This document shows, in pieces, positions 14,423 through 32,458 of a DNA stretch of 34,215 nt (position 1 is its first letter; each line of letters starts with the position of its first letter). The stretch lies in the NCBI GenBank assembly GCA_035471825.1, contig DATIPP010000128.1:1-34215 (forward strand). Reading direction: 5' to 3'. The position numbers and the translations under genes were made by a program. The notes under the pieces are model-generated. The model did no database searches, had not been told where the DNA came from, and saw only the letters and a list, made by a program, of their open reading frames with translations. Origin of the DNA: Gammaproteobacteria bacterium. Its GTDB lineage: Bacteria; Pseudomonadota; Gammaproteobacteria; Eutrophobiales; Eutrophobiaceae.

Positions 14423-14434
14423 AGGGAATTTTGA

Positions 14435-15616: not shown

Positions 15617-15627
15617 AAACCCTGTAA

Positions 15628-17110: not shown

Positions 17111-17588
17111 AATTCTGAAGAATGACGGTATCGACAGGTTGATTATAAAGTCCACGCAGGAAGGTCTGCCGGTTACTGCACGTCCGTACCACGTTATAGC
17201 GGAACGGATCGGAGTTGATGTTTGCACAGTAATGCAGCGGATAAATACAATGCAGGAAGCCGGAATAATTCGCCGAATCGGTGTCGTGCCCAATCATTAC
17301 AAGTTGGGGTACCGTGCAAACGGCATGACAGTCTGGGATATTGTGGATGAACGAATCTCGGAACTGGGACAGGAAGTTGGTGAGCTGGATTTTGTCAGCC
17401 ATTGCTACCGGAGGCCAAGACACCTGCCGGAATGGCCTTACAATCTGTTTGCCATGGTCCACGGGTACAACAGGAATACAACTGAACAATATATCGATTA
17501 TATCAGGGAAATTCTGGGGGATGCGGTCCGGAGTTATGATGTATTGTACAGCACGCGATTGCTCAAAAAATCCGGTTTGAGAATTTAA
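17103..17588 (+). CDS. nirH: Sirohaem decarboxylase subunit
   Basis: 161 aa NirL-like paralogue with HCYRRPRHLPEWPYNLFAMVHG. Confidence 0.8.
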   Translation: MPEILKNDGIDRLIIKSTQEGLPVTARPYHVIAERIGVDVCTVMQRINTMQEAGIIRRIGVVPNHYKLGYRANGMTVWDIVDERISELGQEVGELDFVSHCYRRPRHLPEWPYNLFAMVHGYNRNTTEQYIDYIREILGDAVRSYDVLYSTRLLKKSGLRI

Positions 17589-17622
17589 GTTGATCGTTAA
17601 TTAAAAAAAGAAAACAGGCAAG

Positions 17623-18813
17623 ATGTTCAGAATTTCACAATACATGAAGGAAATAAAAAATCCCCTATCGCCACGGGATGCATCAAGGTCTTCCGGGCCT
17701 GTTGTAATATGGAATTTAATTCGTCGCTGTAATCTTGCCTGCAAGCATTGTTATTCCATTTCGGCAGATCATGATTTTCCTGGAGAATTGTCCCTCGCGG
17801 AAATCCATACAGTCCTGGATGATTTGAAAACTTTTGGTGTCCCGGTACTCATCCTGTCAGGTGGTGAACCGCTTCTGCATCCCCATATTTTCGATATTAC
17901 GAGAAGGGCGAAGAAGATGGGTTTTTATGTCGGCTTGTCTACCAACGGGACAATGATAAGTGAGGACAATATCGGGGAGATCGCCGATATTGATTTTGAC
18001 TATGTCGGAATCAGTATCGACGGTCTGATGGAAACACATGACCATTTCCGGAGGAAGGCGGGTGCATTCGATGCATCAATAAAAGCGGTTCATTTGTGCA
18101 GGAATAACGGCATAAAGGTGGGGTTGAGGTTTACAATGACCCTGGATAATTACAATGAATTACCCGATCTTCTTGCCCTTATGGACACGGAGGACGTTAA
18201 TAAATTTTATTTGTCACATCTGAATTATGCAGGGCGCGGTAACCGTAATCGCAAGGACGATGTTACCCATATAATCACAAGAAAATCACTTGATATATTA
18301 TTCGAAAAATGCTGGCAGGATATAAATGAAGGAAGAAATCGTGAATATGTATCGGGTAACAATGACGCGGATGGCGTTTATTTCCTGCACTGGGTAAGAA
18401 AATACTTTCCCGAGAGGGAGGATTATTTCCGGGAGAGGCTGGAGCAATGGGGTGGTAACAGTTCAGGAGTGAATATTGCAAACATTGATAATCTGGGGAA
18501 TGTTCACCCGGATACTTTCTGGTGGCACTATAACCTGGGTAATGTGAAGGATCGTCCATTCTCTGAAATATGGAAGGATACCAGCGATCCGATTATGGCC
18601 GGTCTGAAACGCAGACCAAGAAAAATAGGCGGTCGATGCGGGAAGTGTTGCTTTTTTAATATCTGCGGAGGAAATACAAGGATCAGGGCATTACAGATGA
18701 CCGGAGATCCATGGGCGGAAGATCCGGCCTGTTATCTTACAGATAGTGAAATTGGCATAGATGACAGTAAAATCAGCTATGCCGCTCGCGGTGTTAATGC
18801 AGCAATTGTTTAG
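17623..18813 (+). CDS. nirJ: Radical SAM haem d1 biosynthesis enzyme
   Basis: 396 aa with the radical SAM motif CNLACKHC and GGEPLL. A C-terminal auxiliary Cys cluster (CGKCCFFNICGG) indicates a SPASM-type domain. Confidence 0.9.
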   Translation: MFRISQYMKEIKNPLSPRDASRSSGPVVIWNLIRRCNLACKHCYSISADHDFPGELSLAEIHTVLDDLKTFGVPVLILSGGEPLLHPHIFDITRRAKKMGFYVGLSTNGTMISEDNIGEIADIDFDYVGISIDGLMETHDHFRRKAGAFDASIKAVHLCRNNGIKVGLRFTMTLDNYNELPDLLALMDTEDVNKFYLSHLNYAGRGNRNRKDDVTHIITRKSLDILFEKCWQDINEGRNREYVSGNNDADGVYFLHWVRKYFPEREDYFRERLEQWGGNSSGVNIANIDNLGNVHPDTFWWHYNLGNVKDRPFSEIWKDTSDPIMAGLKRRPRKIGGRCGKCCFFNICGGNTRIRALQMTGDPWAEDPACYLTDSEIGIDDSKISYAARGVNAAIV

Positions 18814-20368
18814 AAATATATCACCCCTGGTCCTTTTTCTGATCCTGACAGCAGTTAGCAGGATTTGTCTTGCCGAACCGAAAACACAGGCAGACAGTTT
18901 GTATCAACAGCACTGCGCTGCCTGTCATGGTAGGGATCGCCTTGGCGGAACAGGGCCTGCATTATTGCCGGAGAATCTCGCCCGCCTGAAAAAAGCAGCG
19001 GCCCATGATTCCATCAGTAATGGACTGGCTGCGACACAGATGCCGGCTTTCCAGGATCAGCTCAATGATAAACAAATCGGATTGCTGGTTGACTATATTT
19101 ATACACCACTGACCAATGCGCCAGCCTGGTATATAGAGGAAATAGAAAACACACATATTGTCAAATACTGGGACGATTTATCCAGTGATAAACCGCTGTT
19201 TGATGCCGATCCGTTGAACCTGTTTATTGTTGTTGAGAAAGGTGACCACCATGTATCAATACTGGACGGGGATCGACTCGAACCAATACACAGGTTCAAG
19301 ACACGACGGGCATTACATGGTGGTCCGAAGTATTCACCTGACGGACGGTATGTTTATTTTGCTTCCAGAGACGGGTGGGTATCAAAGTATGATCTGTATA
19401 ACCTGAAATATATTGCTGAAATCAGGGTCGGTATAAATACCCGCAATATTGCTGTTTCGAATGATGGCAAATATGTACTTGCCGGTAATTATCTCCCGCA
19501 TACACTTGTAATCCTTGATGCAGGGAAACTGTCACCGATAAAAGTCATTCCGGTTGAAGACGAATCAGGCAAAAGCTCGCGTGTCAGTGCAGTTTATGAT
19601 GCTCCCCCGAGAGGGAGTTTTATCATTGCATTGAAGGATATTCCCGAAATATGGGAAATTTATTATGATGAAAATCAGGAACCTCTCTATACCGGCATGG
19701 TGCATGATTACCGTTACCAGGAAGGAATAGCAACAGATACACCGTTTCCGGTCCGTCGTATACGTCTTGATGATTACCTGGACGATTTCTTCTTTGATGC
19801 AGGATACAACAATCTTGTCGGAGCGGCACGAAACGCGAAAAACGGCCAGGTTGTCAGTCTGATCGTCGGCAGAAAGATTGCCGAGCTTGAACTTTCGGGA
19901 CTGCCTCATCTCGGTTCAGGTATTACCTGGGAATACCAGGGTAAAACAATACTGGCAACTCCAAATATCAAGAAGGGCCTGATAAGCATCATCGATCAAT
20001 CAAACTGGAAAGTCATCAAGGAGATTAAAACATTGGGACCGGGATTTTTCATGCGTTCGCATGAAAATTCACCTTATGGATGGGTTGATGTATTTTTTGG
20101 CCCGGATAAGGATGCTGTTCATGTTATTGATAAAGCCACGCTGGAAATAGTTGCGACACTAAGGCCCGCACCGGGAAAGACATCGGGTCATGTTGAATTC
20201 ACAAGGGATGGAAAATATGCCTTGCTGAGCATCTGGGAGAATGATGGTGCACTCGTTGTTTATGATTCCAGTACCCTGGACGAGGTGAAAAGGATTTCCA
20301 TGAACAAGCCTTCCGGTAAATATAACGTCTATAACAAGATCCATGGATCAAGTGGCACCAGTCACTGA
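18761..20368 (+). CDS. nirN: Dihydro-haem d1 dehydrogenase, cd1-like cytochrome
   Basis: It has a signal peptide, the haem c site CAACHG and a cd1-type propeller, and it is the last gene of the cluster. The start is ambiguous between ATG at 18761, 18779 and 18800, all of which overlap the nirJ 3' end. Confidence 0.85.
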   Translation: MTVKSAMPLAVLMQQLFRNISPLVLFLILTAVSRICLAEPKTQADSLYQQHCAACHGRDRLGGTGPALLPENLARLKKAAAHDSISNGLAATQMPAFQDQLNDKQIGLLVDYIYTPLTNAPAWYIEEIENTHIVKYWDDLSSDKPLFDADPLNLFIVVEKGDHHVSILDGDRLEPIHRFKTRRALHGGPKYSPDGRYVYFASRDGWVSKYDLYNLKYIAEIRVGINTRNIAVSNDGKYVLAGNYLPHTLVILDAGKLSPIKVIPVEDESGKSSRVSAVYDAPPRGSFIIALKDIPEIWEIYYDENQEPLYTGMVHDYRYQEGIATDTPFPVRRIRLDDYLDDFFFDAGYNNLVGAARNAKNGQVVSLIVGRKIAELELSGLPHLGSGITWEYQGKTILATPNIKKGLISIIDQSNWKVIKEIKTLGPGFFMRSHENSPYGWVDVFFGPDKDAVHVIDKATLEIVATLRPAPGKTSGHVEFTRDGKYALLSIWENDGALVVYDSSTLDEVKRISMNKPSGKYNVYNKIHGSSGTSH

Positions 20369-20457: not shown

Positions 20458-20763
20458 CTACAGGCTGCTGAAATATGCTGCCAGATCGTTGATATCTTCA
20501 TCCGTGAGATTTGCCGCCATGGGCGACATCATTGGGTCAGATCGTGACCCTTCCCGAAAGGCCTTGAGTTGCTTGACGAGATAACCGAATTTCTGGCCCG
20601 CCAGGTTCGGCCACAAGTCATTCGGGCTGATCCCGTCCGCCCCGTGGCAGGCTGCGCAGTTTGACGATTTTTCCTTGCCGGCTGCCGCATCTCCCTCCGC
20701 AAACGCCATGGACAGGAATCCCGATAAAATGACTGTTAATAATATTTTATGCATATTTTTCAT
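20458..20763 (-). CDS. Periplasmic class I monohaem cytochrome c
   Basis: 101 aa with a signal peptide ending AFA/E, the haem site CAACHG and the Met-ligand region MMSPM. It is the last gene of the oxidase-like operon. Confidence 0.8.
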   Translation of the reverse strand: MKNMHKILLTVILSGFLSMAFAEGDAAAGKEKSSNCAACHGADGISPNDLWPNLAGQKFGYLVKQLKAFREGSRSDPMMSPMAANLTDEDINDLAAYFSSL

Positions 20764-20835: not shown

Positions 20836-21231
20836 CTACATATCCAGATATCTGTGTAATCTCGCATCCTTGGTGCTGAAATGATCGGTAAACCAGTGGT
20901 TAAGTTCATCGACAAATTTGTCAGTATCAATCTCCATCATATCACTGTAATGTTCCATGATATCCCGTATTTCATCAAGCAATTTATCATGATCAGCCTT
21001 GTGATCTGCCAGTTGATCATAATTCTTTTCCCGCATTATCTTTTCTTCCAGCGCAAAATGTAGTGCGATGCGCGCATATATTTCGCCAAGGTAATCTGAT
21101 GTATTATCTTCCCTGTCTGTTTCATATATTTTGACAAGCATTTCGTTAATCAATTGAATCAATTTACGATGTTCATAATCAATTTCCGGAATTCCGAGTG
21201 AAAACTCGTCTTTCCATTCCAATAGTTGCAT
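20836..21231 (-). CDS. Bacteriohemerythrin
   Basis: 131 aa with the W.DEFS.GI.EID.EH..L opening. All seven di-iron ligand positions are present: H (EHRKL), H and E (LHFALEE), H-x3-H (DHKADH), and H-x4-D (DHFSTKD). Confidence 0.85.
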   Translation of the reverse strand: MQLLEWKDEFSLGIPEIDYEHRKLIQLINEMLVKIYETDREDNTSDYLGEIYARIALHFALEEKIMREKNYDQLADHKADHDKLLDEIRDIMEHYSDMMEIDTDKFVDELNHWFTDHFSTKDARLHRYLDM

Positions 21232-21267: not shown

Positions 21268-21771
21268 TTATAAAAATACAAACCCCCCGGCTTCCTTGTT
21301 AAAATCTATTACGAAATTTTGTCCGGGTTTCAACTCGATATCAGTTGAACGCTCATGGTCAAATCCTTCATTTTCACGACTATCGCGCATTCGCGTAACC
21401 AATTTGTGTTTTCCGGGTGTTACCCTGAAGTACTCATATACAGTCGAGGCACCATCATGAGACAGTCCTGAAGCAGGAACCTGCTCTTTGTACAGGATAT
21501 TTCCATCCAGTATTATTTCAACGAGTATTGGAACCCGTTCTCGACTGCATTCGAGAGGTCTTCGCATATTCGGTGCCATTGCTTCAAGCTCCTCCTGTGT
21601 CAATCGCCGGCATTCTTCCTTTTTTTCACCGGCATGACTGAAACTTATTTTGAGTAATGCCATCCCGGGATCAAGATGTTCGTATTCAGGTCTGGATGAG
21701 AAATACCCGACAATCACTGCAAAAACAAGATAGGTAGTTATCTGAATAACAATGTTTCTTGGTGTGTACAT
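21268..21771 (-). CDS. Membrane-anchored protein of unknown function
   Basis: 167 aa with one N-terminal TM helix (IVIQITTYLVFAVIVGYF) followed by a soluble domain carrying two Cys. I recognise no family. It is packed tightly within the operon. Confidence 0.55.
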   Translation of the reverse strand: MYTPRNIVIQITTYLVFAVIVGYFSSRPEYEHLDPGMALLKISFSHAGEKKEECRRLTQEELEAMAPNMRRPLECSRERVPILVEIILDGNILYKEQVPASGLSHDGASTVYEYFRVTPGKHKLVTRMRDSRENEGFDHERSTDIELKPGQNFVIDFNKEAGGFVFL

Positions 21772-21792: not shown

Positions 21793-23325
21793 TCAGTTAT
21801 TAAATCCTGTGACTTCGTTGTTCAGTGAAGCCAGTTTTTCCTTAAAACGTATGATTTTCTGTATCAGCTTTTTTCTATTGACAGATCCGGTCCAGTACTG
21901 ACTGATTCTTTCCCGGGAGACACGTTCTCGGAGGAATGGATCACGCTCCCCGGTAATACGCTGTTTTGTCCAGTTAATACCGAATCGGTTATAACAGTTG
22001 CCTACCTTGCAACCGGTCAGAAATACACCATCAGCAATATTTTGACTGAGAATAAAATCAATAAATGAGGGTGGCAACATCCCGACACATGGAAGTGAAA
22101 CGGTCGTTGTATTGTTAATGTTGATGTTGCATGCAACTGGCCCATGATCACAACTGAAAATAAAAACCCTGTCCCTGCCCTGCATTATTTCCGCGGTATC
22201 AATTACATATTGCCTGAGCTGATTGATAGAGAAATCGGGTAATTCAATTCCCGGGACCAGTTTACTTTTCCGCCTGAAAGGCATTGCCGTAGGACATGCC
22301 CCGGCACATATTCCGCAACTGACACATAAATCAGGATTGACCACGGCCTGGCTGGTATAGGGCAGTTCGTCGGTGCGTGCCTGCAGACTTACGGCATTGT
22401 AGGGACAGTCAGAAACACAGCGTCCGCAACCATTGCAATTGTCCAGATCAATCTTTGCAATTGATAATGATTTTTTTCTGGTGATCCAGGGCATGCACAA
22501 TAAAATTGATACTAGCAGAAAGATTGCAATCCACAAGTAGAGCCCCGGAAATTCATCCAGTAACGGATAAAAAAACATGTAATACCAGTCCAGCCCGACA
22601 GTTGTTACTGCCTTGTCCAGTTCTGCTGGTCCCTGGCTGGTAGCAGGATAAAAAAGCGACAAGGCCAGTAACATGAGCAAGATACCGGTTGCCAGGTACC
22701 TGGGCAGCATGACTTTTGGCATGGTTATGCGCTGAATATGCATCCACATGAATAACAGCAGGATCAGGGGGGCCGCAATATGAATAAATACGAACAATGT
22801 AAAAAAGCGGCCACTCAGTGTTGTGTCATGTAGAAAATTTCTTGCAATGGATTCGCCAAATAAGGGAAGAGTGTCAAGCCATTCTGATGTGGAAATTGCG
22901 ATATACTGGGCCAGCTTGTCCCACACAATCCAGTAACCTGTTATTCCACTTGCATATATGAATAACAGGCTCATTACACCAATGATCCATGTAAATGCCC
23001 GGGGGCCATGAAATCGATCCAGTGAATACTCACGAAGCATATGAAGAAAAATGACGATTACCAGGGCATCTGATGCATATCGGTGAAAGCTTCGCATTAC
23101 ACCACCGGCATACCACTGGGTATTAGTCAGATATTCGATGGATTCATAGGCTTCTGTTACACCTGTATCAAAAAAGATATATAGATATATACCACTGGCA
23201 ACAACTATCCAGTAAAAAAACCATCCCATTGTCCCCAGAAAAAGCATTGGATTGCAGGCAGGGGTAAAACCGGCACTAAAAATATCATCCGTTTTTTCAA
23301 ATAATTGTCGCAGGTATTTTTTCAT
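21793..23325 (-). CDS. Fusion protein: dihaem cytochrome b (bc-type) + 2x[4Fe-4S] ferredoxin + MvhD/FlpD-like domain
   Basis: There are two His-x13-His pairs on TM helices (FHRYASDALVIVIFLH and IHIAAPLILLLFMWMH) and a PEWY-like loop (LDWYYMFFYPLL). These are followed by CNGCGRCVSDCP and CVSCGICAGACP. The MvhD-like tail reads FSCDHG...CVGMLPPSFIDFIL..ADGVFLTGCKVGNCYNRFGN. I prefer the ATG at 23325; the track ORF to 23412 starts at GTG and overlaps senC. Confidence 0.8.
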   Translation of the reverse strand: MKKYLRQLFEKTDDIFSAGFTPACNPMLFLGTMGWFFYWIVVASGIYLYIFFDTGVTEAYESIEYLTNTQWYAGGVMRSFHRYASDALVIVIFLHMLREYSLDRFHGPRAFTWIIGVMSLLFIYASGITGYWIVWDKLAQYIAISTSEWLDTLPLFGESIARNFLHDTTLSGRFFTLFVFIHIAAPLILLLFMWMHIQRITMPKVMLPRYLATGILLMLLALSLFYPATSQGPAELDKAVTTVGLDWYYMFFYPLLDEFPGLYLWIAIFLLVSILLCMPWITRKKSLSIAKIDLDNCNGCGRCVSDCPYNAVSLQARTDELPYTSQAVVNPDLCVSCGICAGACPTAMPFRRKSKLVPGIELPDFSINQLRQYVIDTAEIMQGRDRVFIFSCDHGPVACNININNTTTVSLPCVGMLPPSFIDFILSQNIADGVFLTGCKVGNCYNRFGINWTKQRITGERDPFLRERVSRERISQYWTGSVNRKKLIQKIIRFKEKLASLNNEVTGFNN

Positions 23326-23359
23326 CTTGGTAAAGGAAGGAATTATGCCGGCCTGGAAT

Positions 23360-24250
23360 TTATGAAGTACTGTTCGTGCGCCAGAGATGAAAAAGGAAAA
23401 CAAGCAGGCCACCCAGCGAAATTAATCCGGTCAAAAAAGCAATGACTATTGAATAATCAAAGGTATATCTTCCAGTTGAAGGATCGTAAATCGTACAGAA
23501 TAACCTGATGTTATTTACCCATTCGGATATATTTGATGGTAAAAAACTGCCATCCCCAAACACTAGTTCTTTTAATGGTTCAATCAGTACGGGAGGAGAG
23601 AATGTTGCCCCGTAAATCTGCCTGTAAACACGACCATGGCTGTCAATAATTGTGGTTTGAGCCAGGTGATCAAAACCTTTTGCAGAAGGAAAAAATATAA
23701 ATCCCAGATCACTGGCAAGATTCTCTATTGTTTCAGTGTCTGCGCTCAGAAAGTGCCAGTTTCTATCATTGATACCTCTTTCAGATGCAAATAATTTCAT
23801 TCGTTCTGGCGTGTCGACGCCAGTATCAAATCCTATTGTTATAATGGTGAAACTGTTATCTCCAAGTGTCTCTTGTGCGATTTGAACGGTTTTGTGAAGA
23901 TTCGTGGTTAAAACAGGACAGGTATGGTGGCAGCTTGTATATATAAAACTGACAATAGCGGGTTTGTCAGTATAATATTTGGCAATATTTACCGTACCAC
24001 CATTTTGATCGGTCAACCTGTAATCACCAATAGCGCTGCCTACTACAGACTGACTGTAAACCAGAGCCTTTTCGTTACTGAAACCTGTGGTACTGGTCAG
24101 ATTTTCCTGGGGTGAGTTATTGTTCCCTGTTACGGTGGATGGTAAGAAAACTGTAAGGTATATCAAATATCCGGCAAAATGGCCGACAGAAATAAATGAT
24201 TCTAAGCCTATAATCCCTTTGTAATAATTACCTTTTGAAATAAACCGCAT
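23360..24250 (-). CDS. senC: SCO1/SenC-family copper chaperone with an extra C-terminal membrane segment
   Basis: 296 aa with an N-terminal TM helix, a thioredoxin-fold CxxxCP motif (SCHHTCP) and the conserved distal His (DHLAQTTIIDSHG). The C-terminus has FCTIYDPSTGRY followed by a TM helix. Confidence 0.8.
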   Translation of the reverse strand: MRFISKGNYYKGIIGLESFISVGHFAGYLIYLTVFLPSTVTGNNNSPQENLTSTTGFSNEKALVYSQSVVGSAIGDYRLTDQNGGTVNIAKYYTDKPAIVSFIYTSCHHTCPVLTTNLHKTVQIAQETLGDNSFTIITIGFDTGVDTPERMKLFASERGINDRNWHFLSADTETIENLASDLGFIFFPSAKGFDHLAQTTIIDSHGRVYRQIYGATFSPPVLIEPLKELVFGDGSFLPSNISEWVNNIRLFCTIYDPSTGRYTFDYSIVIAFLTGLISLGGLLVFLFHLWRTNSTS

Positions 24251-24275: not shown

Positions 24276-25958
24276 CTATCTGAGCGGCCAGACTTCTGCA
24301 AGATATTTCCAGTTTACGAAGTAATAAAGCACAAAAGTTGTAAAGAAAACGGCCACAAGGACTACTGTCCCGGGTATAGCCAGTGTGCCGGCGCTTCCAT
24401 ATTTTCCAACAACTGATGATGCTGGCTTGCCTTTCATGATACTTTGGTCAACTTTTTTACCAAAAAGTATTGAGCCAACTACTATCAAGATGTAGAGAAT
24501 CCCGCCCAGCGCTGCCAGAATGGCACTGATCCCGTTTAATCCCATCATGAGAAATGCTGCCCCGGGATAGTCGAATTTCAATGCAGCATCTGTAAAGGTA
24601 ATATCCCAGTGTCTCCTGGCCACACCGAGCGTTCCTGCGCCCATCATGAATAACGAAATACCGGCAGCGCCAATGCCAAAAAGATAAGGCTGTAACCTTG
24701 CCAGTTTTGGCCAGATAAGTTCACGCTGGAAGATAAGGGGAATCAGCAGGTAAGTAATGGCCATGAATGCCAGCGTTGTTCCGGCTACTACTGTACCGTG
24801 AAAATGGCCCGGAACATATAATGTATTATGCATGATAATGTTAAGTTGTTCGGTACCCAGAATTACGCCCGTGATTCCACCTATAAATCCGAACATTATT
24901 AACGACAGAAACATGCCTGAAAATGCCGGATTACCCCACGGTGCTTTTTTGAGCCATTCAAAAATACCGTTGGTATATCCCTTTGCTCTTTGTGCCACTT
25001 CAATTGAGCCTGGAACCGTCATACCGTGAATCATGCTTCCGAGTACAGCAAGATACATAGCATAACTTGTATTGAATATTTTCCATTCAGAACTTATTCC
25101 GGGCTCAACCAGTAAATGATGAGCGCTTGCAAGCTGCAGGAAAAGAATGTACATCAGAAAAGCCAGTCTGCTCACCTTCTCTGAAATAGGCTTGGCGCCA
25201 AGCACAATAGCAGCTATGGCGTACCAGACAGCAACGTGCGCGGAAACATTTATTTGCTGTGACGAATGCCCCATTGCCCACCAGACTGCCTTGTACATCA
25301 ATGGATCAATATTACTGACTAAATCCATAGACCACAAAAATGTAGGAATCAATATAATTGCTCCGGAGGCAATGGTAAATACAGCGATAATTGCTGCGGT
25401 AAGGGCACCAAATGTGACAAGTGGAATTGAACCTTCATAGGTCTTTTCTTCCTTGGCAATAACGAGAGTACCAAAGAAAACACAACAGCCTAGCAGGGCC
25501 CCGACTGCAAAAAGGACGATACCGAGATAAAAATGCGGATCTGCCTGCATGGGGACATAGGACGTGAACATAACACTGGATTTACCTTGTAAAACCGCGA
25601 TATTTGTTATCACAGCACCAATCAGCATCATCCAGAAGCCCGTCCAGCCAACCCTGGGGGCAGCGATCCTCGAGTTCAGCAGAATGGCGGAAGCAAAATA
25701 AAGTATGGCCATCTCGAAAAAAATAATCCATACCAGCAATACATCAAGCCCGTGTGCCGTTAATGCCAGGTAGAACCAGTCCGCCGGCAGCAAGTGTACT
25801 GCAGGCCAGCGTGTTAGTGCGACTGACAGTCCGAACAGACCACCAATAGCTAGGAATACGACAGCAGCGACAGCATTCGCCTTGATCAGTTTTTCCGCTG
25901 GCAGGTGTATCTGCAGGCCTGTTGTCGGGCAGGTTCGAAACTGGGTATCTGAGGCCAT
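24276..25958 (-). CDS. Haem-copper oxidoreductase subunit I, ba3-like (B-family) but lacking the cross-linked Tyr; candidate NO reductase (sNOR/NorS-like)
   Basis: 560 aa with about 13 TM helices and the SD ggag. All six canonical His are present (LTAHG, AMGHSS, SAHH, PGHFHG). The protein is collinear with Thermus ba3 CbaA motifs (DPL..WW.GH, RLAFL, PW.NPAF, HNT..VPGHFH). Helix VI reads GHSSQQ instead of GHPIVY. Confidence 0.85.
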   Translation of the reverse strand: MASDTQFRTCPTTGLQIHLPAEKLIKANAVAAVVFLAIGGLFGLSVALTRWPAVHLLPADWFYLALTAHGLDVLLVWIIFFEMAILYFASAILLNSRIAAPRVGWTGFWMMLIGAVITNIAVLQGKSSVMFTSYVPMQADPHFYLGIVLFAVGALLGCCVFFGTLVIAKEEKTYEGSIPLVTFGALTAAIIAVFTIASGAIILIPTFLWSMDLVSNIDPLMYKAVWWAMGHSSQQINVSAHVAVWYAIAAIVLGAKPISEKVSRLAFLMYILFLQLASAHHLLVEPGISSEWKIFNTSYAMYLAVLGSMIHGMTVPGSIEVAQRAKGYTNGIFEWLKKAPWGNPAFSGMFLSLIMFGFIGGITGVILGTEQLNIIMHNTLYVPGHFHGTVVAGTTLAFMAITYLLIPLIFQRELIWPKLARLQPYLFGIGAAGISLFMMGAGTLGVARRHWDITFTDAALKFDYPGAAFLMMGLNGISAILAALGGILYILIVVGSILFGKKVDQSIMKGKPASSVVGKYGSAGTLAIPGTVVLVAVFFTTFVLYYFVNWKYLAEVWPLR

Positions 25959-25974: not shown

Positions 25975-26508
25975 TTATTCGGTAACATATATTTTTCCGA
26001 TCATGGTATGGTGACCGATACCACAAAATTCATTGCAAATAATGCTGTATTCTCCGGCCTGGTCCGGAGTGACTGTAATTACCATTTCATAACCCGGATG
26101 TATTTGCAGATTGATGTTGGTTGGTTGAAGTGAAAATCCATGTTGCCAGTCCAGCGAGGAAATATGCAGGCGGTAACTCTGGTCTTTTTCAAATTCCAGT
26201 ATAGGCCACCACTGCCAAAGACGACCTATTAGATATACATCGCTGCCCGGTGGTGGGTGCACAACAGGAAAATTTGATTCTTCCCGCACCTTGTATTTAT
26301 CAACCATTTCGGTTGTTTTTGCGGAAAACGTCTCCGGCGTAATACGGTATGCTTCGTTGGAAAGGTTCTGTTCGCCGGCGCCATGCCAGTAAATCATCAT
26401 GAAAAACATGAAGAGACCCCACATGAATCCAACGATAATCCATATCAGTTCAGTTCTGGCAACGGGCTCGTTCCACCATATCCGTTCTTCAGGAGGTGTG
26501 ATGGCCAT
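25975..26508 (-). CDS. Haem-copper oxidoreductase subunit II with an intact CuA site
   Basis: 177 aa with one TM helix and a cupredoxin domain. The CuA ligand pattern is H(GF)...CNEFCGIGHHTM (H, C-x-E-x-C-G-x2-H-x2-M). It is collinear with ba3 CbaB, and the SD is aggag. Confidence 0.9.
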   Translation of the reverse strand: MAITPPEERIWWNEPVARTELIWIIVGFMWGLFMFFMMIYWHGAGEQNLSNEAYRITPETFSAKTTEMVDKYKVREESNFPVVHPPPGSDVYLIGRLWQWWPILEFEKDQSYRLHISSLDWQHGFSLQPTNINLQIHPGYEMVITVTPDQAGEYSIICNEFCGIGHHTMIGKIYVTE

Positions 26509-26520: not shown

Positions 26521-26694
26521 TTATTTTGCGATTGGTATCTGAACGATTTCCATGATTCCCCATATCACGTAGAAAACAGTCGGTATAGTGACACCGAGGA
26601 ACAATAACAGAAAAGGGTTATCAAGGATTTTTTGCATGAACGGGATTTGTTCATCTTCGTTGTTATGTTGCACTGCAGATTCTTCTTTTGCCAT
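26521..26694 (-). CDS. 57-aa single-TM protein, possible small oxidase subunit (IIa-like); not in the ORF track
   Basis: ATG at 26694 to TAA at 26521 encodes MAKEESAVQHNNEDEQIPFMQKILDNPFLLLFLGVTIPTVFYVIWGIMEIVQIPIAK. It lies 12 nt upstream of subunit II and downstream of the FNR-box promoter. Confidence 0.5.
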   Translation of the reverse strand: MAKEESAVQHNNEDEQIPFMQKILDNPFLLLFLGVTIPTVFYVIWGIMEIVQIPIAK

Positions 26695-26755: not shown

Positions 26756-26769
26756 TTGATCTATATCAA
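26756..26769 (-). promoter_or_regulatory. Perfect FNR/DNR box of the oxidase-like operon promoter
   Basis: TTGATctatATCAA matches the consensus at 10/10. On the minus strand, TACAAT lies 16 nt downstream and TACATT (26728-26733) lies exactly 22 nt downstream. Confidence 0.8.
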
Positions 26770-26815: not shown

Positions 26816-27004
26816 TTATTGAATTTCAATAATATATCTTATGAGGGCGAAACTCGAAACTGCCAGGAAAGAAAGGATGAAAAAGAAAATCAGGCTGCGA
26901 TATTCAAAACGTCGGCCGGCAATCAATTCCAGGCGCTCCAATAGCCGGTCTGAGACTGTATAGAGAATAATTGCCGCGATTGTGTAGGATAGAATTTCCA
27001 ACAT
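26816..27004 (-). CDS. Possible 62-aa two-TM membrane protein
   Basis: The ORF has two hydrophobic segments. I recognise no family, and it lies upstream of the FNR box, so it would be a separate transcript. Confidence 0.3.
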   Translation of the reverse strand: MLEILSYTIAAIILYTVSDRLLERLELIAGRRFEYRSLIFFFILSFLAVSSFALIRYIIEIQ

Positions 27005-27840: not shown

Positions 27841-28539
27841 ATGAAATTGTTTGGCGAAAACAAAAGGGACATACCGGGGTTGACTGACAATCCTGTTTTT
27901 TCAGCACTTCGGGAAGACCAGCTTGACAGTGTCATATCGACGGCGGAACAAAAGGATCTGGCAGCAGGTAACATACTTTTTGAGCAGGGCGAGGCAGCCT
28001 CAAGGTTCTACATGGTAAAAAAAGGACAAATACGGCTGTTTCGCCTGTCCGACGATGGGGACGAAAAAGTCATAGATATCGTTCACCCGGGCCAGATTTT
28101 TGCCGAGGCGGTCATGTTTATGGAAAACAGGCGTTATCCCGTAAACGCCATGGCAATAACTGAAAGCCAGGTGATTGCTTTTGATATGGAAACCTTCAGA
28201 AATGTATTGAGGGAATCAGTCGATACCTGTTTCCGCATGATGGCCAAAATGAGCAAACGGCTGCATATCCAGTTGAACGAGATTGACAGCCTCAGCCTGC
28301 ATAATGCGACATACCGCCTGGTTCACTATTTGCTCAAGTCGATACCTGCCAATACATCCAGGCATACCGAGATAACCCTGAATTATCCGAAAAATATACT
28401 GGCATCCCGTCTTTCGATTAAGCCCGAGACGTTTTCAAGGATCATATCGCGTCTCAAGAAGGAAAATATCATAGAGGTAAGCGGAAACCAGATTATTATC
28501 AGTGATATATCGGCATTACGGGAAATTGCTGGTGAATGA
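27841..28539 (+). CDS. dnr: Crp/Fnr-family regulator, Dnr type
   Basis: 232 aa with no N-terminal Cys cluster. It is strongly collinear with P. aeruginosa Dnr as I recall it (FAEA.MFM, IDE/SLSL.NAT.R.V.YLL, LSI.PETFSRI..RL). The recognition helix has the E--SR motif that reads TTGAT half-sites. Confidence 0.85.
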   Translation: MKLFGENKRDIPGLTDNPVFSALREDQLDSVISTAEQKDLAAGNILFEQGEAASRFYMVKKGQIRLFRLSDDGDEKVIDIVHPGQIFAEAVMFMENRRYPVNAMAITESQVIAFDMETFRNVLRESVDTCFRMMAKMSKRLHIQLNEIDSLSLHNATYRLVHYLLKSIPANTSRHTEITLNYPKNILASRLSIKPETFSRIISRLKKENIIEVSGNQIIISDISALREIAGE

Positions 28540-28580: not shown

Positions 28581-29432
28581 TTATACATTGACCCTGACGG
28601 GCAACCCTGTCTCTTCTATTTTTTCTGCATAACGGGCAAGCCATTCATCAGGTAATCGGCCCAGGCGGGGAGCTTCTTCCTGCATGGAAGGCCGTGCAAT
28701 ACCGTAAAGGTATATCCCGCTTAATGGCACACCCTCCGCCTGCAGAGCGGAAATATATTTTATGTAGTCCCGTTGCTCTTCCAGGGAGGGTGGTTTCCCG
28801 TCAACCGTGAAAACACATGTCTGGATCCAGGTTGTACACAGTCTTGCCGCAGTCTCCAGGTTCTGCATCAAACTGTTTTTCGGTATTCGGGCATGATTAA
28901 TAGTTCTGATCCCGCTTGTGGTTACGCTGTCCAGTTTAAACCAGATTTCACCCTTCATTTCCCCGAGCAGCCTTATACCCTTTTGTACGAGGGGAAGATG
29001 CATAAGACTTCCGTTTGTGATCAGGGTCACCCTGGTGGTCTTCGGCAAGTCGGATTCATCGATAACCCGGCCGACAAGTTCAATAACCTGATTAAACTGC
29101 CGACATGTTGTCGGTTCTCCATTACCGGAAATGGCAATATCCCGGATAACACGGGAGCCAGAAGGAGCCCCGTAGCGTGAAAAGAAGTCACCATGAAGAA
29201 TTTTATTGATGACGGAATGAAGTTCTGATTCGAGTTGAACCATGTCTGCATCCGGTGCACCACCGGGTTTCAAACCAGGCACCTGGCAATAGATACATCG
29301 CCAGTTGCAGGAATTGTTTGTATTCAGGTTGACTCCTATTGACAGGCCACCTGTGCGACGCGAATTAACAGCGTAAATATACTTCCTGTCAAGGATGTCA
29401 CGACGGTGGTCAGAGGTTTCCAGTAATAACAT
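28581..29432 (-). CDS. Radical SAM protein of unknown function
   Basis: 283 aa with the cluster motif CNWRCIYC at residues ~41-48 and the SAM-binding motif SGNGEPT. I recognise no auxiliary cluster or B12 domain. It is co-directional with and immediately downstream of nrdJb. Confidence 0.8.
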   Translation of the reverse strand: MLLLETSDHRRDILDRKYIYAVNSRRTGGLSIGVNLNTNNSCNWRCIYCQVPGLKPGGAPDADMVQLESELHSVINKILHGDFFSRYGAPSGSRVIRDIAISGNGEPTTCRQFNQVIELVGRVIDESDLPKTTRVTLITNGSLMHLPLVQKGIRLLGEMKGEIWFKLDSVTTSGIRTINHARIPKNSLMQNLETAARLCTTWIQTCVFTVDGKPPSLEEQRDYIKYISALQAEGVPLSGIYLYGIARPSMQEEAPRLGRLPDEWLARYAEKIEETGLPVRVNV

Positions 29433-29438
29433 GTGATA

Positions 29439-29535
29439 CTAGAAGCTGTCTCAAAATTACATCCTCAGCTCCGTAAACGTTGCATTCATGCCCGCTCCTC
29501 ACGAACCACGTTGCGGAATTTGAGACAGGTTCTAG
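29439..29535. mobile_element. MITE-like element, copy B (97 bp)
   Basis: CTAGAAGCTGTCTCAAAATTAC (29439-29460) and ggaatttgagacaggttctag (29515-29535) form inverted repeats. The termini belong to the same family as copy A, with consensus CTAGAACCTRTCTMAAAATTCC. Confidence 0.55.
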
Positions 29536-30200
29536 CCGCATTTGGATTCGCCACAGTTCAGACATGTCAGGCAATTATCAAGATATATCATTGCTTTTGT
29601 CAGACATTTTTTACATAGAGTTGCGTTAGCTGGAAAATCATCTGTTGCCTGTGAGCCAGGCTCAGGATTTTTTTTCAGGTATTCAGTACGTTTTTCCTCA
29701 ATCATTTTTTTCTGATGCTCGTCCAGAAGATCATCTTTCAAAAGGCCAATCATTTTCAGGTGACTCTCAAGGACATCGCCGATTTCAGCAACGAGTGATG
29801 GCATGAATTTACCGCCTTTCTTGAAGTACCCTCCGTGCGGATCGAATACCGAACGAAGTTCCCCAACCAAAAATGTAATATCACCTCCTTTACGGAAAAC
29901 GGCCGAGATGATTCTGGTTAATGCAACAATCCACTGGAAATGATCCATGTTCTTTGAATTAATAAACAACTCGAAAGGGCGGCGGGATTCGTGTTTGGTA
30001 CCCGGATTCAGAACAATATCATTAATAGTAACGTACAGGGCATGTTCAGAAAGAGGTGTGGTAATCTTGTAGGTTGATCCGTGCAGGGCTTGAGGCCGTT
30101 CAAGTTTTTCATGCATATGAACAACGTTATCAACATCGATCTGGCCTTTATTTTTGATAACACGAGAATCAACTATTTTATGATCTATTTTTACCGACAT
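29532..30200 (-). CDS. nrdJb: Class II ribonucleotide reductase, C-terminal fragment (NrdJb) with a Cys-rich tail
   Basis: 222 aa with G.TYK..TP...LYVTIN...PFE.FINSKN and GG....V.EL..V.DP.GG, typical of the NrdJ C-terminal region. The tail reads CKKCLTKAMIYLDNCLTCLNCGESKCG. Its start abuts the nrdJa stop. Confidence 0.8.
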   Translation of the reverse strand: MSVKIDHKIVDSRVIKNKGQIDVDNVVHMHEKLERPQALHGSTYKITTPLSEHALYVTINDIVLNPGTKHESRRPFELFINSKNMDHFQWIVALTRIISAVFRKGGDITFLVGELRSVFDPHGGYFKKGGKFMPSLVAEIGDVLESHLKMIGLLKDDLLDEHQKKMIEEKRTEYLKKNPEPGSQATDDFPANATLCKKCLTKAMIYLDNCLTCLNCGESKCG

Positions 30201-30201
30201 A

Positions 30202-32352
30202 TCAATATTTACCGTAATAACCTTCTTTCAATGCATCATGCAGGTTTGCAGCAGTATGTTGCTCACCGTCATATTCAATCATCTCGTTACCCTTTACCGT
30301 AACAATGTCGCCGTTTTCCAGCGTAAACCGGTACATCGTGTTTTCCAGGTTTTTTTCACTGACAAGCACACCCTGGAATACTTCAGGGTTGAAGCGGAAT
30401 GTCGTACATCCTTTTAATCCCTGTTCACAGGCATACCAGTAAATATCCTTGAAATTCTCAAACGGGTAATCCGCCGGTATGTTGGCTGTCTTGGAAATGG
30501 ATGAATCAATCCATTTCTGTGCCGCGGCCTGAATATCAATATGTTGTTGTGGAGTAATATCCTCGGAAGTCACAAAATAATCAGGAAGCCCGGAATTCGA
30601 ATCTTCTGCATCAGGGCGTGCATCCGTTTTGATCAGGCATCGATACGCCAGCAATTCAAATGAAAAAACATCCCTTTTTTCCTTGGTTTTCTTCCCCGAA
30701 CGTATAACATTCCTGGCGTAATGATGGGAGAAGCTTGGTTCTATGCCGTTACTGGCATTATTACCCAGTGAAAGTGATATGGTGCCTGTCGGGGCAATTG
30801 AGCTGTGGTGTGTAAACCGGGCACCGGTTTTTTCAAGCTCCCTGGCCAGGCCTGGATCAATTTCTGCAATTTTTTGCATATAGCGACTGTAGCGGGCATG
30901 TAATACCTTTCCCTTGATTGTGTCACCTTCACGATAACCGTCACGCTGCATTTCCGGTCGTTTTTGTAACATGTTTTTATCAACGGAAAATGTTTTATTC
31001 ATGATCGGAGCCGCACCTTTTTCCCGGGCGAGTTCCAGCCCCGTCTGCCACCCGATCAACGCGAGTTCCCTGCTGATATTTTCAGTAAATTGCAATGATT
31101 CAGTGCTCCCGTATTTCAGGCACAACATGGCAAGAGTGGATCCAAGGCCGAGAAATCCCATGCCATGACGGCGTTTTTCCAGTATCTCGTTTTGTTGCTT
31201 ACCAAGAGGCAGCCCATTGATATCAACAACATTGTCCAGCATGCGCGTGAAAATTTTCACCAGCCTCCGGAAGGACTCCCAGTCAAATGATGCGTTTGAT
31301 GTGAAGGGTTCCAGAACAAACAGGGACAGGTTGATTGAACCCAGCAGGCATGCGCCATAAGGGGGCAGTGGTTGTTCACCGCACGGATTGGTGGCACGTA
31401 TATCTTCACAGAACCAGTTGTTATTGAGTTCATTTACCCTGTCAATCAGGATGAAACCGGGTTCTGCATAATCATAGGTGGTCTGCATTATTTCATCCCA
31501 CAGCCCCCGTGCAGATACGGTCTTGTAAATCCTGCACGCAACCTCACCATTTTCATTTATGATGTAATTATCCTGTAATGGCCAGTTCCGCCAGATAAAC
31601 TCTGATGAATCATTCAGGTCATACTGCCGGGATTCCAGTTCTTCACGCATGACTGGAAACGCAAGCGGCCAGTCTGCATCATCACGGACGGACCGGATAA
31701 AAGATTCCGTGATCAACAGCGAAAGATTGAATTGACGTAACCGACCCGGCTCCCTTTTTGATCGGATGAAATCAAGCACATCCGGATGACCGATATCAAA
31801 GGTGGCCATTTGCGCTCCCCGCCTGCCACCGGCGGATGAAACCGTGAAACACATCCTGTCATAGATATCCATGAAGGAAAGTGGACCTGAAGTTTGCGCG
31901 CCGGCCCCTGTTACGTACGCTCCCCTGGGCCGCAGCGTGGAAAATTCATAACCGATACCACACCCGCATTTCAACGTCAGGCCGGATTCACGCACCTTGG
32001 TGAGTATGTCATCCATGGAATCATGGATAGTGCCGGAAACAGTACAATTGATGGTGGACGTGGCCGGCTTGTAAGCGTTTGCGCCGGCGTTCGAGATTAT
32101 ACGGCCTGCAGGTATGGCACCATGCTGGAGGGCCCAGAAAAATTCCCTGTTCCAGTAACGTCTTTTCTCATCTGTTTGTTCAATATCAGAAAGAACGCGG
32201 GCGACACGCCGGTACGTATCGTTGAGATTCTGGTCGAGCGGTTCTCCGTTCCTGTCTTTCAGGCGGTATTTCTGGTCCCAGATGTCCAGGGAGGTTGATT
32301 GTAATGGTATATCTTCAAAGACGTTCCCGGCATCTGCACTGACCGTATTCAA
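30202..32352 (-). CDS. nrdJa: Adenosylcobalamin-dependent (class II) ribonucleotide reductase, large fragment (NrdJa)
   Basis: 716 aa with the RNR barrel motifs NCTVSG, GGIGY.FS.LRP.G, SAGGRRGA, TNPCGEQPL and SIAPTG. The split a/b architecture matches Pseudomonas aeruginosa. Confidence 0.9.
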   Translation of the reverse strand: MNTVSADAGNVFEDIPLQSTSLDIWDQKYRLKDRNGEPLDQNLNDTYRRVARVLSDIEQTDEKRRYWNREFFWALQHGAIPAGRIISNAGANAYKPATSTINCTVSGTIHDSMDDILTKVRESGLTLKCGCGIGYEFSTLRPRGAYVTGAGAQTSGPLSFMDIYDRMCFTVSSAGGRRGAQMATFDIGHPDVLDFIRSKREPGRLRQFNLSLLITESFIRSVRDDADWPLAFPVMREELESRQYDLNDSSEFIWRNWPLQDNYIINENGEVACRIYKTVSARGLWDEIMQTTYDYAEPGFILIDRVNELNNNWFCEDIRATNPCGEQPLPPYGACLLGSINLSLFVLEPFTSNASFDWESFRRLVKIFTRMLDNVVDINGLPLGKQQNEILEKRRHGMGFLGLGSTLAMLCLKYGSTESLQFTENISRELALIGWQTGLELAREKGAAPIMNKTFSVDKNMLQKRPEMQRDGYREGDTIKGKVLHARYSRYMQKIAEIDPGLARELEKTGARFTHHSSIAPTGTISLSLGNNASNGIEPSFSHHYARNVIRSGKKTKEKRDVFSFELLAYRCLIKTDARPDAEDSNSGLPDYFVTSEDITPQQHIDIQAAAQKWIDSSISKTANIPADYPFENFKDIYWYACEQGLKGCTTFRFNPEVFQGVLVSEKNLENTMYRFTLENGDIVTVKGNEMIEYDGEQHTAANLHDALKEGYYGKY

Positions 32353-32444: not shown

Positions 32445-32458
32445 TTGATTTAGGTCAA
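32445..32458 (-). promoter_or_regulatory. FNR/DNR-type box upstream of nrdJab
   Basis: TTGATttagGTCAA matches at 9/10. On the minus strand, TGTAAT (32417-32422) lies exactly 22 nt downstream, and the ATG is at 32352. Confidence 0.65.

Follow-up and report, generated by a model that had tools for sequence, protein, structure and literature searches.

The gene at positions 24276 to 25958 on the minus strand very probably encodes, judging from its sequence, subunit I of an eNOR-family NO reductase, a member of a haem-copper lineage derived from the B-type oxygen reductases. It was analysed within a window of 34,215 nucleotides, the whole stretch of DNA under study. Our assignment follows from diagnostic residues published for the family, together with the taxonomic range of the closest relatives and the content of the operon. 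The family itself is already known (Hemp & Gennis 2008; Murali et al. 2024, PMC11214002), while the conserved accessory genes that accompany it here, which include a cytochrome b/Fe-S fusion and a hemerythrin, are still uncharacterised.

The product has 560 amino acids, starts with ATG, and contains 13 predicted transmembrane helices. Pfam COX1 matches residues 24-457 (E 1.6e-67), and the best solved relatives are the subunit I chains of Thermus ba3 oxidase, which align over residues 31-498 (E ~1e-44). An AF2 model, also with 13 helices (pLDDT 87.7, pTM 0.90), placed B-family oxidases at the top of a fold search (TM-score 0.80-0.82). These three lines of evidence agree with the initial annotation, which had read the open reading frame as a B-family, Thermus ba3-like subunit I. 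They also bear out its description of the metal site. All six canonical haem-copper His ligands are present and align with those of ba3, namely H69 of LTAHG with H72, H231 of AMGHSSQQ with H233, H280 and H281 of SAHH with H282 and H283, and H385 and H387 of PGHFHG with H384 and H386. As had been noted, helix VI departs from the oxidases by a change of Tyr to Gln at His+4 and of Pro to Ser at His+1. In our alignment, Q235 occupies the position of the cross-linked Y237 and S232 that of P234, so that the His-Tyr pair motif GHP(L/I/V)VY is replaced by GHSSQQ; the Tyr is found in all 14 B-family comparators. Furthermore, Q234, Q235, and N237 are invariant among the 264 members of the clade to which the protein belongs, and GHSSQQ is therefore not a chance feature.

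The residue at this position distinguishes the NO-reducing families. Gln in place of the cross-linked Tyr defines eNOR (PMC8756737 Table A4, Figure 6 legend); Asn is found in sNOR and bNOR, and Glu in cNOR and qNOR (PMC8756737). We rejected a cNOR or qNOR identity on the Gln, rather than Glu, at His+4 and on the partner subunit, which is a CuA cupredoxin. Relatives were gathered by a genome scan (the best 80 loci, all from proteobacterial MAGs), by plasmid searches, and from a representative library with cluster look-ups, along with a profile search seeded with the Thermus, Thermomicrobium, and haloarchaeon sequences. A phylogenetic placement had been proposed in the initial annotation, and in our neighbour-joining distance tree, which carries no support values, the query falls in a single clade with the motif H-x-x-Q-Q-(I/V)-N. 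Its co-members include a Defluviimonas plasmid gene (NZ_CP156080; 70.5% identity), genes from Thermus denitrification plasmids (49%), and sequences from Thermomicrobium, Chloroflexi/Anaerolineae, and one haloarchaeon (41%). The sister of this Gln clade is a partly archaeal group that keeps the Tyr (H-x-x-Q-Y-(V/I)-N), and B-family oxidases form the outgroup. Among the plasmid matches, the closer one from Thermomicrobium, which adjoins a CtaA-CtaB fusion gene, is a member of the Gln clade; the weaker ones, from Deinococcus, Janthinobacterium, Geobacillus, Methylobacterium, Variovorax, and Ralstonia, are B-family oxidases of the ordinary kind that have the Tyr. Neither the eNOR of Rhodothermus marinus nor the sNOR of ammonia oxidisers (NorSY, NE0683-NE0684) was among the named matches listed by the genome, plasmid, library, and profile searches, and the accessions listed for the Thermus cluster did not include WP_015717644.1, a Thermus sequence that appears in the published eNOR tree. 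The taxonomic range of the Gln clade agrees with that published for eNOR (PMC8756737 section 3.3). In addition, position 387, which holds the second His of the low-spin haem, is Lys in 27 of 141 non-proteobacterial clade members, and a His/Lys variant of this haem is known for some eNORs (PMC11214002).

Two further genes of the operon lie upstream of subunit I on the same strand. Subunit II (25975 to 26508, minus strand) consists of one transmembrane helix and a cupredoxin domain with a complete CuA site. The CuA ligands (H123, C158, C162, H166, and M169) align with the ba3 CuA domain (E 2e-14) and are kept in every one of the best 80 related loci; Glu20, at the cytoplasmic start of the helix, is kept in 79 of them. 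Directly upstream of subunit II lies a gene for a small membrane protein of 57 amino acids with a single helix (26521 to 26694, minus strand). An open reading frame of this kind occurs on the same strand in 79/80 of the best related loci, and the Defluviimonas, Thermus, and Thermomicrobium loci have small hypothetical open reading frames in the corresponding place. By analogy with subunit IIa of ba3, the protein is probably a third, small subunit. Residues of the K-channel are likewise retained. Across the clade, Tyr246 and His311 of subunit I are invariant and positions 259 (Ser/Asn) and 314 (Thr/Ser) stay polar, and the equivalent of ba3 Ser309, Ser308, is invariant too. This last residue is kept in eNOR and bNOR and absent from sNOR (PMC11214002). 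K-channel residues like those of the B family, the Ser309 equivalent included, are a published mark of eNOR (PMC11214002) and are found here.

The operon lies next to genes for nitrite reduction. A nirS-nirN cluster on the plus strand (12302 to 20368) comprises nirS (12302-14047), a cytochrome c gene, nirF, four genes of the nirD/L/G/H type, nirJ, and nirN. It encodes the cd1 nitrite reductase and haem d1 synthesis, and is thus the source of the NO substrate. The end of nirN at 20368 lies 90 bp from the operon's last gene, in convergent orientation, and 3.9 kb from the subunit I gene, matching the distance of about 4 kb given previously. This convergent layout recurs in relatives that are 92% identical, and nirS occurs within the flanks of 20 of the best 80 related loci. 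Within the 34-kb window we found no NorB- or NorC-like open reading frame, as the initial annotation had stated for norCB: the eight open reading frames longer than 400 amino acids encode PcnB, EctB, HemN, NirS, NirN, the cytochrome b/Fe-S fusion, subunit I, and NrdJ, none of them NorB-like.

Regulatory signals connect the operon to these neighbours. The perfect FNR/DNR box that had been reported at the operon was located at 26756-26769 (TTGATCTATATCAA), with its centre ~68 bp upstream of the ATG of the small open reading frame. For a palindrome with 10 specified bases, we estimate a chance expectation of ~0.03 perfect boxes in 34 kb. Boxes with at most one mismatch occur no more than 300 nt upstream in 35 of 76 related loci, compared with 0 of 76 in a coding-sequence control. 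Within the window, boxes with one mismatch lie upstream of nirS (12227-12240) and of hemN (10705-10718). A scan of the operon region for sigma-70 promoters and terminators yielded 19 promoter-like sites where 18.3 were expected. A Crp/Fnr-family regulator is encoded nearby on the plus strand (27841 to 28539; Pfam cNMP_binding and HTH_Crp_2), and homologues are present in the flanks of 19/80 of the best related loci. The protein has no N-terminal Cys cluster and carries the recognition motif E-x-x-S-R (ETFSR), features that make it DNR/NnrR-like. Low O2 or NO would probably act through this adjacent regulator on the FNR-type boxes to switch on the operon together with hemN and nirS. The literature presents the hosts of eNOR as obligately aerobic denitrifiers in which haem A depends on O2. 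In the organism studied here, by contrast, the FNR/DNR box and hemN suggest that expression is anoxic or microoxic.

The initial annotation had taken the enzyme to be the NO-reductase partner of the nirS system and had pointed to sNOR as its family. The core of that reading is supported, both by the adjacent nirS-nirN cluster with the FNR/DNR-type boxes common to the operon, hemN, and nirS, and by the behaviour of the purified member of the family. The eNOR of R. marinus reduces NO at 0.68 per second (PMC11214002 section 6). The family pointer was wrong, and we consider it very improbable that the enzyme is an sNOR of the norSY-senC-orf1 type found in ammonia oxidisers. The order of subunit II, subunit I, SCO/SenC, and a further open reading frame does recall the norSY-senC-orf1 clusters of Nitrosomonas and Nitrosospira (PMC4940428), and sNOR is likewise related to the B family and has a CuA subunit (PMC11214002). 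Yet eNOR operons, too, usually have an SCO gene behind subunit I (Ferrigenium preprint), and the two families cannot be told apart by gene order. Diagnostic residues do separate them. The residue typical of sNOR is Asn and that of eNOR is Gln (PMC8756737 Table A4), and Gln235 is invariant in 264 relatives; sNOR lacks the equivalent of ba3 Ser309 (PMC11214002), and Ser308 is invariant here. On this combination, measured against the published sNOR residues, we rejected an sNOR identity; Gln235 and Ser308 fit eNOR instead of the proposed kinship. The range of taxa in the clade and the His/Lys variant also fit eNOR. The active site of sNOR is the same as that of bNOR (PMC11214002). The remark that such clusters had not been characterised biochemically holds for sNOR, whose function is disputed (PMC6967387), but not for eNOR, given the purification of the R. 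marinus enzyme in 2024.

Alternatively, the eNOR-like subunit I could belong to a high-affinity terminal O2 reductase that works with another Tyr, such as Tyr270 in the manner of cbb3, or without the cofactor, and for which NO reduction is only a side reaction. Its B-family relatives are high-affinity oxidases, FNR-type control is typical of microoxic oxidases too, and a case for O2 reduction has been made for the sNOR of N. europaea (Sedlacek et al., PMC6967387). The Tyr of FLMYILF, Tyr270, is moreover kept in 263 of 264 members of the Gln clade. Its position and distribution argue against a role as substitute. In the structure of cbb3 oxidase (P. stutzeri CcoN), Tyr251 stands six residues before the pair formed by His257 and His258. 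Here the residue at -6 from the His pair is Leu274 and that at -5 is Gln275, and the nearest Tyr is Tyr270, ten residues before H280. In the AF2 model, helix VII is continuous over residues 260-282; at -10 rather than -6, Tyr270 would lie about one helical turn farther from the metal site. It is also present in 4/4 members of the sister clade, where the canonical Tyr at His+4 is retained, and is thus a feature of the lineage, not a replacement. On this spacing and sister-clade presence we rejected Tyr270 as a cbb3-style cofactor. The substitute Tyr that the initial annotation had named as the obvious candidate for overturning its reading therefore came out negative, a result that favours NO reduction. 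Purified R. marinus eNOR also shows no O2 reduction with several donors (PMC11214002). We judge an O2 reductase to be improbable. Some other nitrogen-oxide reaction, for example NO dismutation or N2O reduction, is extremely improbable. NO dismutase or N2O reductase functions have been proposed for divergent branches of the haem-copper superfamily (PMC11214002), and nosZ is missing from the window, but the branches in question are related to qNOR and cNOR and are not derivatives of the B family (PMC11214002), and the only eNOR member tested turns NO into N2O.

Accepting that the enzyme is an eNOR, the operon holds more than its catalytic genes. The order of small open reading frame, subunit II, subunit I, (haem O synthase), SCO, cytochrome b/Fe-S protein, 167-amino-acid protein, and hemerythrin is kept in 66-80 of the best 80 genomes, and agrees with the eNOR operon of Ferrigenium (preprint 10.64898/2026.01.22.701106). 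Following subunit I on the minus strand is a gene for an SCO1/SenC-family copper chaperone (23360 to 24250; Pfam SCO1-SenC, E 6.8e-12), found in 78 of the best 80 loci and presumably serving CuA assembly. Next is a fusion of a cytochrome b6-like di-haem protein with two [4Fe-4S] motifs and an FlpD/MvhD-like domain (21793 to 23412, minus strand; Pfam, NCBIfam), which matches cytochrome b6 in the PDB (E 2.6e-21). Its start is uncertain, with ATG at 23325 more likely than GTG at 23412, a start that lies inside the SCO gene. The fusion gene is present in 71 of the best 80 loci, and 69-71 of those 71 retain the four His of the haems, a DW(F/Y)Y..P motif, and 12 Cys. The 167-amino-acid protein (21268 to 21771, minus strand), a membrane-anchored beta-sandwich protein (AF2 pLDDT 91.6), is encoded in 68/80 loci. 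It has no Pfam or NCBIfam match, and a PDB fold search gave nothing below E 0.016; lacking a significant fold match, we propose no function for it. A bacteriohemerythrin gene (20836 to 21231, minus strand; NCBIfam NF033749, 91.4 bits against a cut-off of 84) is found in 66/80. The last gene on this strand (20458 to 20763) encodes a monohaem cytochrome c with a signal-like N-terminus (Pfam Cytochrom_C, E 8.7e-11), a candidate electron donor to CuA. It is kept in the 92%-identical relatives, but in only 2 of the best 80 wider loci. No gene for haem O or haem A synthase was found in the window. The haem O synthase gene lies within the operon in 52-55 of the best 80 relatives, and haem O/A synthase genes are frequent in eNOR operons without defining them. 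A modified haem A at both haem sites is counted among the traits of the family.

These observations suggest a sequence of events, drawn from family membership, for how the enzyme might work. Electrons from a periplasmic cytochrome c, possibly the product of 20458-20763, would be taken up at the CuA centre of subunit II, move on to the low-spin haem ligated by H69 and H387, and then reach a binuclear site formed by the high-spin haem (H385) and a metal held by H231, H280, and H281. There, two molecules of NO from the neighbouring cd1 nitrite reductase NirS would be converted to N2O. Only two electrons are needed for this reaction, which makes the redox-active His-Tyr cofactor dispensable; in eNOR it would be replaced by Gln235 and a clade-specific amide residue at 275. 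A retained ba3-like K-channel, running from Glu20 of subunit II through Ser259, Tyr246, Ser308, His311, and Thr314 of subunit I, could allow proton uptake from the cytoplasm, in which case the reaction would be electrogenic. More speculatively, and in our estimation unlikely, the eNOR core in Proteobacteria is part of a larger, uncharacterised respiratory module that includes the accessory genes, which lie downstream of eNOR in 66-71 of the best 80 genomes. Such a module would add a Rieske-less di-haem cytochrome b with a Qo-like DW(F/Y)Y..P motif and a fused cytoplasmic domain (two [4Fe-4S], MvhD-like), as well as the membrane-anchored beta-sandwich protein and the hemerythrin. These additions could couple the oxidation of quinol both to NO reduction and to a low-potential acceptor in the cytoplasm. 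If so, NO respiration would conserve energy and, with haem O instead of haem A, would be independent of O2.

A standard pipeline would score this nirS-carrying gammaproteobacterium as lacking an NO reductase. Recognition of the eNOR closes the step from nitrite through NO to N2O for the organism, and the same point of annotation extends to hundreds of related lineages from sediment and groundwater, including Woeseiaceae, Steroidobacteraceae, and Sulfurifustaceae. In estuarine metagenomes, eNOR has recently been reported to be the most abundant and most transcribed nor type (PMC13592168). As a published, biochemically tested, and environmentally very common family, it makes our finding real but ordinary. 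The gap in annotation has already been raised in the literature, and the value here is that of a correct annotation rather than a discovery.

The enzyme can also be set beside the closest known systems. With the ba3 oxidase of Thermus thermophilus (PDB 1EHK, 1XME, 3S8F) it shares a 13-helix subunit I (~27% identity, TM-score ~0.8), the six His ligands, a subunit II that carries CuA and spans the membrane once, a probable additional small subunit of one helix, and the K-channel residues Ser261, Tyr248, Ser309, and Thr315 (ba3 numbering). It differs in Tyr237 to Gln, Val236 to Gln, Trp239 to Asn, and Pro234 to Ser, in Thr312 to His, Tyr244 to Val, and Phe272 to Tyr, and in an invariant Glu82 in helix II of subunit I. 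With cNOR and qNOR (NorB) it has in common the superfamily, the reaction, and a polar residue at His+4 in place of Tyr; those enzymes, however, use Glu ligands for FeB, have CuA replaced by a haem c subunit (NorC) or a quinol site, and lack a cytoplasmic proton channel. The sNOR of ammonia oxidisers is similar in its relationship to the B family, the loss of the active-site Tyr, the CuA subunit, and a SenC/SCO gene after the catalytic genes, but according to the literature has Asn at the Tyr position and is missing the Ser309 equivalent. The likeness is closest to the eNOR family: a B-family-derived subunit I with Gln at the Tyr position, a CuA-bearing subunit II, ba3-like K-channel residues that include the Ser309 equivalent, clade-mates in Thermus, Chloroflexi, haloarchaea, and Proteobacteria, association with nirS, and an operon that includes an SCO gene and, in most relatives, a gene for haem O synthase. 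Unlike that family's described members, the operon stands in a window without a haem O or haem A synthase gene, and its FNR/DNR box and O2-independent neighbours (hemN, NrdJ) contrast with the aerobic-denitrifier hosts published so far. Compared with the characterised two-subunit eNOR, the proteobacterial operon adds the cytochrome b/Fe-S fusion, the beta-sandwich membrane protein, and the hemerythrin.

The subunit I gene (positions 24276 to 25958, minus strand) opens with an ATG codon, and its 560-residue product matches the Pfam COX1 family (E = 1.6e-67). Its closest solved structures are the subunit I chains of Thermus thermophilus ba3 oxidase, to which it aligns over residues 31 to 498 (E about 1e-44), in agreement with the collinearity proposed in the initial annotation. 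In this alignment, WWAMGHSSQQ stands opposite WWTGHPIVYF of ba3, which places His231 at the CuB ligand His233 and Gln235 at the cross-linked Tyr237. The remaining five metal ligands (H69, H280, H281, H385, and H387) are kept. Thus, all six metal-ligand histidines are present and the cross-linked tyrosine is lost, as had been read from the sequence. An AlphaFold2 model built from an alignment of 130 relatives was confident (pLDDT 87.7, pTM 0.90), with 13 transmembrane helices. Its top structural matches were the B-family oxidases 7DEG and ba3 (TM-score 0.80 to 0.82), and nothing closer was found in the copy of the PDB that we searched. The public annotation of the protein as a cbb3-type oxidase subunit is misleading.

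Relatives of subunit I are numerous. More than 8000 database candidates fell below an E value of 1e-10, the best 120 being at least 79% identical, and a scan of a one-genome-per-species collection found that at least 594 stretches, among the 600 listed, encode a relative. The best 80 of these came mostly from gammaproteobacterial (Woeseiaceae, Steroidobacteraceae, Sulfurifustaceae) and alphaproteobacterial metagenome-assembled genomes. More distant relatives include genes from a Defluviimonas plasmid (70.5% identity), Thermus thermophilus megaplasmids (49%), Thermomicrobium roseum, Chloroflexi and Anaerolineae, and the haloarchaeon Natrarchaeobius (41%). In a neighbor-joining tree of 88 sequences, the query grouped with all of these distant relatives in a single clade, hereafter the Gln clade, whose helix VI motif is H-x-x-Q-Q-(I/V)-N. 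Its sister group retains the tyrosine (H-x-x-Q-Y-(V/I)-N), and two of the four sister representatives carry archaeal names (Thermoproteota, Hodarchaeales). Ordinary B-family oxidases with the motif HP(L/I/V)VYFW fell outside both clades.

The residue at the tyrosine position distinguishes families in this superfamily: Y in oxygen reductases, E in cNOR and qNOR, N in sNOR and CuANOR/bNOR, Q in eNOR, and D in gNOR (PMC8756737, adapted from Hemp and Gennis 2008). The same source treats Gln as the marker of eNOR, a family found in Halobacteria, Anaerolineales, Thermus, Rhodothermus, and four proteobacterial classes. Furthermore, Ser308 is invariant in the Gln clade, and its ba3 equivalent, Ser309, is retained by eNOR and bNOR and absent from sNOR (Murali et al., PMC11214002). 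Lysine replaces the second low-spin-heme histidine in 27 of 141 non-proteobacterial Gln-clade members, Thermus included, a variant known for some eNORs (Murali et al., PMC11214002). Finally, a Ferrigenium preprint lists eNOR II, eNOR I, heme O synthase, sco1, and a scaffold protein as the eNOR operon and places cytochrome b/Fe-S proteins in its neighborhood, an arrangement that is also seen in the window and on the Defluviimonas plasmid. The invariant serine, the lysine variant, and the operon arrangement therefore fit eNOR and not sNOR. The initial annotation had drawn an analogy with sNOR clusters and regarded the relevant family as uncharacterized. The analogy fails on Gln235, which is not Asn, and on the retention of Ser308, while eNOR has already been described and biochemically tested (PMC11214002). 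Judged by these published criteria, subunit I is a typical eNOR.

An argument can be made that Tyr270, in the helix VII motif RLAFLMYILF, substitutes for the missing cofactor tyrosine, an objection that the initial annotation raised against its own NO-reductase hypothesis. Tyr270 is conserved in 263 of 264 Gln-clade members. Yet the four sister-clade sequences that retain the canonical tyrosine at His+4 all have it too, so Tyr270 is older than the loss of the cofactor and does not replace it. Tyr270 lies ten residues ahead of the helix VII His pair; in the Pseudomonas stutzeri cbb3 structure, the cofactor tyrosine lies six residues ahead. Since helix VII is continuous over residues 260 to 282 in our model, Tyr270 is expected about one helical turn closer to the cytoplasm, roughly level with ba3 Tyr244, whose matching residue in subunit I is Val. 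A substitute cofactor of this kind is thus unlikely, which supports the NO-reductase hypothesis; a role for Tyr270 in a proton channel is a reasonable guess. The helix VII change that is peculiar to the Gln clade lies at position 275, five residues ahead of the His pair, where 262 of 264 members have Gln or Asn, the sister clade has Val, and ba3 has Thr.

Other residues also set these proteins apart. Glu82, in the helix II motif WIxFFE, is a buried glutamate that is invariant across the 264 Gln-clade members and shared by the sister clade, at a position held by Ile or Ala in B-family oxidases, and His311 replaces ba3 Thr312. Both may be parts of a modified proton pathway. In Thermus thermophilus TTHNAR1 plasmid 4 (NZ_LR027520; locus L082, 8983 to 10668), the eNOR-like gene has nirS and a nirK-like multicopper-oxidase gene within a few kilobases. 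Its GHFKG, in place of the GHFHG of other members, implies a predicted His/Lys ligation of the low-spin heme. The nirS and nirK-like neighborhood is followed there by genes for an Rrf2 regulator and a ScdA_N/DUF542 protein.

The subunit I gene belongs to a minus-strand operon headed by a 57-aa one-helix ORF (26521 to 26694) directly 5' of subunit II (25975 to 26508), which has a complete CuA site when aligned to ba3 subunit II. Subunit I is followed by SCO1/SenC, a cytochrome b/Fe-S fusion, a 167-aa protein, a bacteriohemerythrin, and a small cytochrome c gene, whose end converges on nirN at a distance of 90 bp. On the plus strand, nirN is preceded by hemN, nirS, a cytochrome c gene, nirF, four nirD/L/G/H-type genes, and nirJ. 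No NorB or NorC gene occurs in the 34,215-nt window, and a perfect FNR-type box lies upstream of the operon (26756 to 26769); both claims had been made previously and both stand. Boxes with one mismatch are found ahead of hemN, nirS, the regulator region, and nrdJ. The encoded Crp/Fnr-family regulator (27841 to 28539) has no N-terminal Cys cluster and carries the recognition motif ETFSR. Among related loci, the upstream region contained a perfect box in 16 of 76 and a box with at most one mismatch in 35 of 76, compared to 0 of 76 in the coding control. From the perfect box, the Cys-less E-x-x-S-R regulator, and the recurrence of boxes in relatives, we infer that a DNR/NnrR-like factor regulates the operon. 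The nir/eNOR layout is identical in close relatives encoding a 92%-identical protein, and 20 of the 80 wider related loci carry nirS within their flanks.

Several neighboring genes bear on lifestyle. NrdJ, a B12-dependent ribonucleotide reductase, is followed by separate TSCPD-domain and radical-SAM ORFs (28581 to 32352, minus strand) and preceded by its one-mismatch box at 32445 to 32458, which suggests that these genes share the low-oxygen regulon of the operon. Beyond the regulator, the close relatives (contigs L090 to L092, about 1 to 6600) encode UbiD, an SCP2 protein, and two peptidase-U32 proteins, a set resembling the ubiT, ubiU, and ubiV genes of O2-independent ubiquinone synthesis, along with two radical-SAM genes; this complement fits an anaerobic lifestyle. 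Genes for ectoine synthesis (ectB, ectA) and a MarR-type regulator (6991 to 9515, minus strand) suggest that the organism is adapted to salt. A possible extra two-helix ORF of about 62 aa (26816 to 27003, minus strand) lies upstream of the FNR box and overlaps the 5' end of an opposite-strand SirB-like ORF; close relatives have a predicted 62-aa gene in the matching position (L090, 8935 to 9123).

Conservation was counted on the same strand across 80 related loci. Subunit II was present in 80, the 57-aa ORF in 79, SCO in 78, the cytochrome b/Fe-S fusion in 71, the 167-aa protein in 68, and the hemerythrin in 66, the lower counts being minima because the downstream sequence extends for at least 6 kb in only 60 of the loci. 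Heme O synthase lies between subunit I and SCO in 52 to 55 of the 80 loci and is absent from the window; a CtaA-like gene was detected in only one of the 80. The 57-aa ORF probably corresponds to ba3 subunit IIa. ORFs annotated as hypothetical occupy the same position in ordinary B-family operons and in the loci of Thermus, Thermomicrobium, and Defluviimonas. The fusion protein (21793 to 23412, minus strand) combines a Rieske-less, cytochrome b6-like di-heme domain with two [4Fe-4S] motifs and an MvhD/FlpD-like domain. Its four heme histidines, eight ferredoxin cysteines, four MvhD-like domain cysteines, and DW(F/Y)Y..P motif, which resembles the PEWY loop of a quinol-oxidation site, are conserved in 69 to 71 of 71 loci. 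The fusion may connect the quinone pool with a redox partner in the cytoplasm. The 167-aa protein (21268 to 21771, minus strand), with two invariant cysteines, is confidently modeled as a membrane-anchored beta-sandwich (pLDDT 91.6) and matched no Pfam or NCBIfam family and, at a significant level, no fold in the PDB. The "eNOR scaffold protein" of the Ferrigenium preprint may be this protein. Possible roles for the bacteriohemerythrin (20836 to 21231, minus strand) include O2 or NO binding, sensing, or buffering.

The fold, metal ligands, tyrosine loss, complete CuA site, kept channel residues, and genomic and regulatory link to nirS are established for this locus; the ligands, tyrosine loss, and nirS link, together with eNOR membership, support the predicted NO-reductase function. 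The purified eNOR of Rhodothermus marinus reduced NO at 0.68 per second, made N2O, and did not reduce O2 (PMC11214002). By analogy, subunit I would reduce NO made by the adjacent NirS, with electrons passing from cytochrome c via CuA to the low-spin heme. Protons would be drawn from the cytoplasm through a ba3-like channel, which would make the NO-reducing step electrogenic.

The gene adds a typical member to a family that was already described and tested, and that was recently reported to be the nor type of highest abundance in estuarine metagenomes (PMC13592168). Its residual interest lies in regulation that appears to be anoxic, in a family that has been linked to aerobic denitrification, and in the conserved accessory module, the only part of the locus that published work leaves unexplained. 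The Ferrigenium preprint mentions similar accessory genes and calls them unusual, whereas across the related loci they are the rule.
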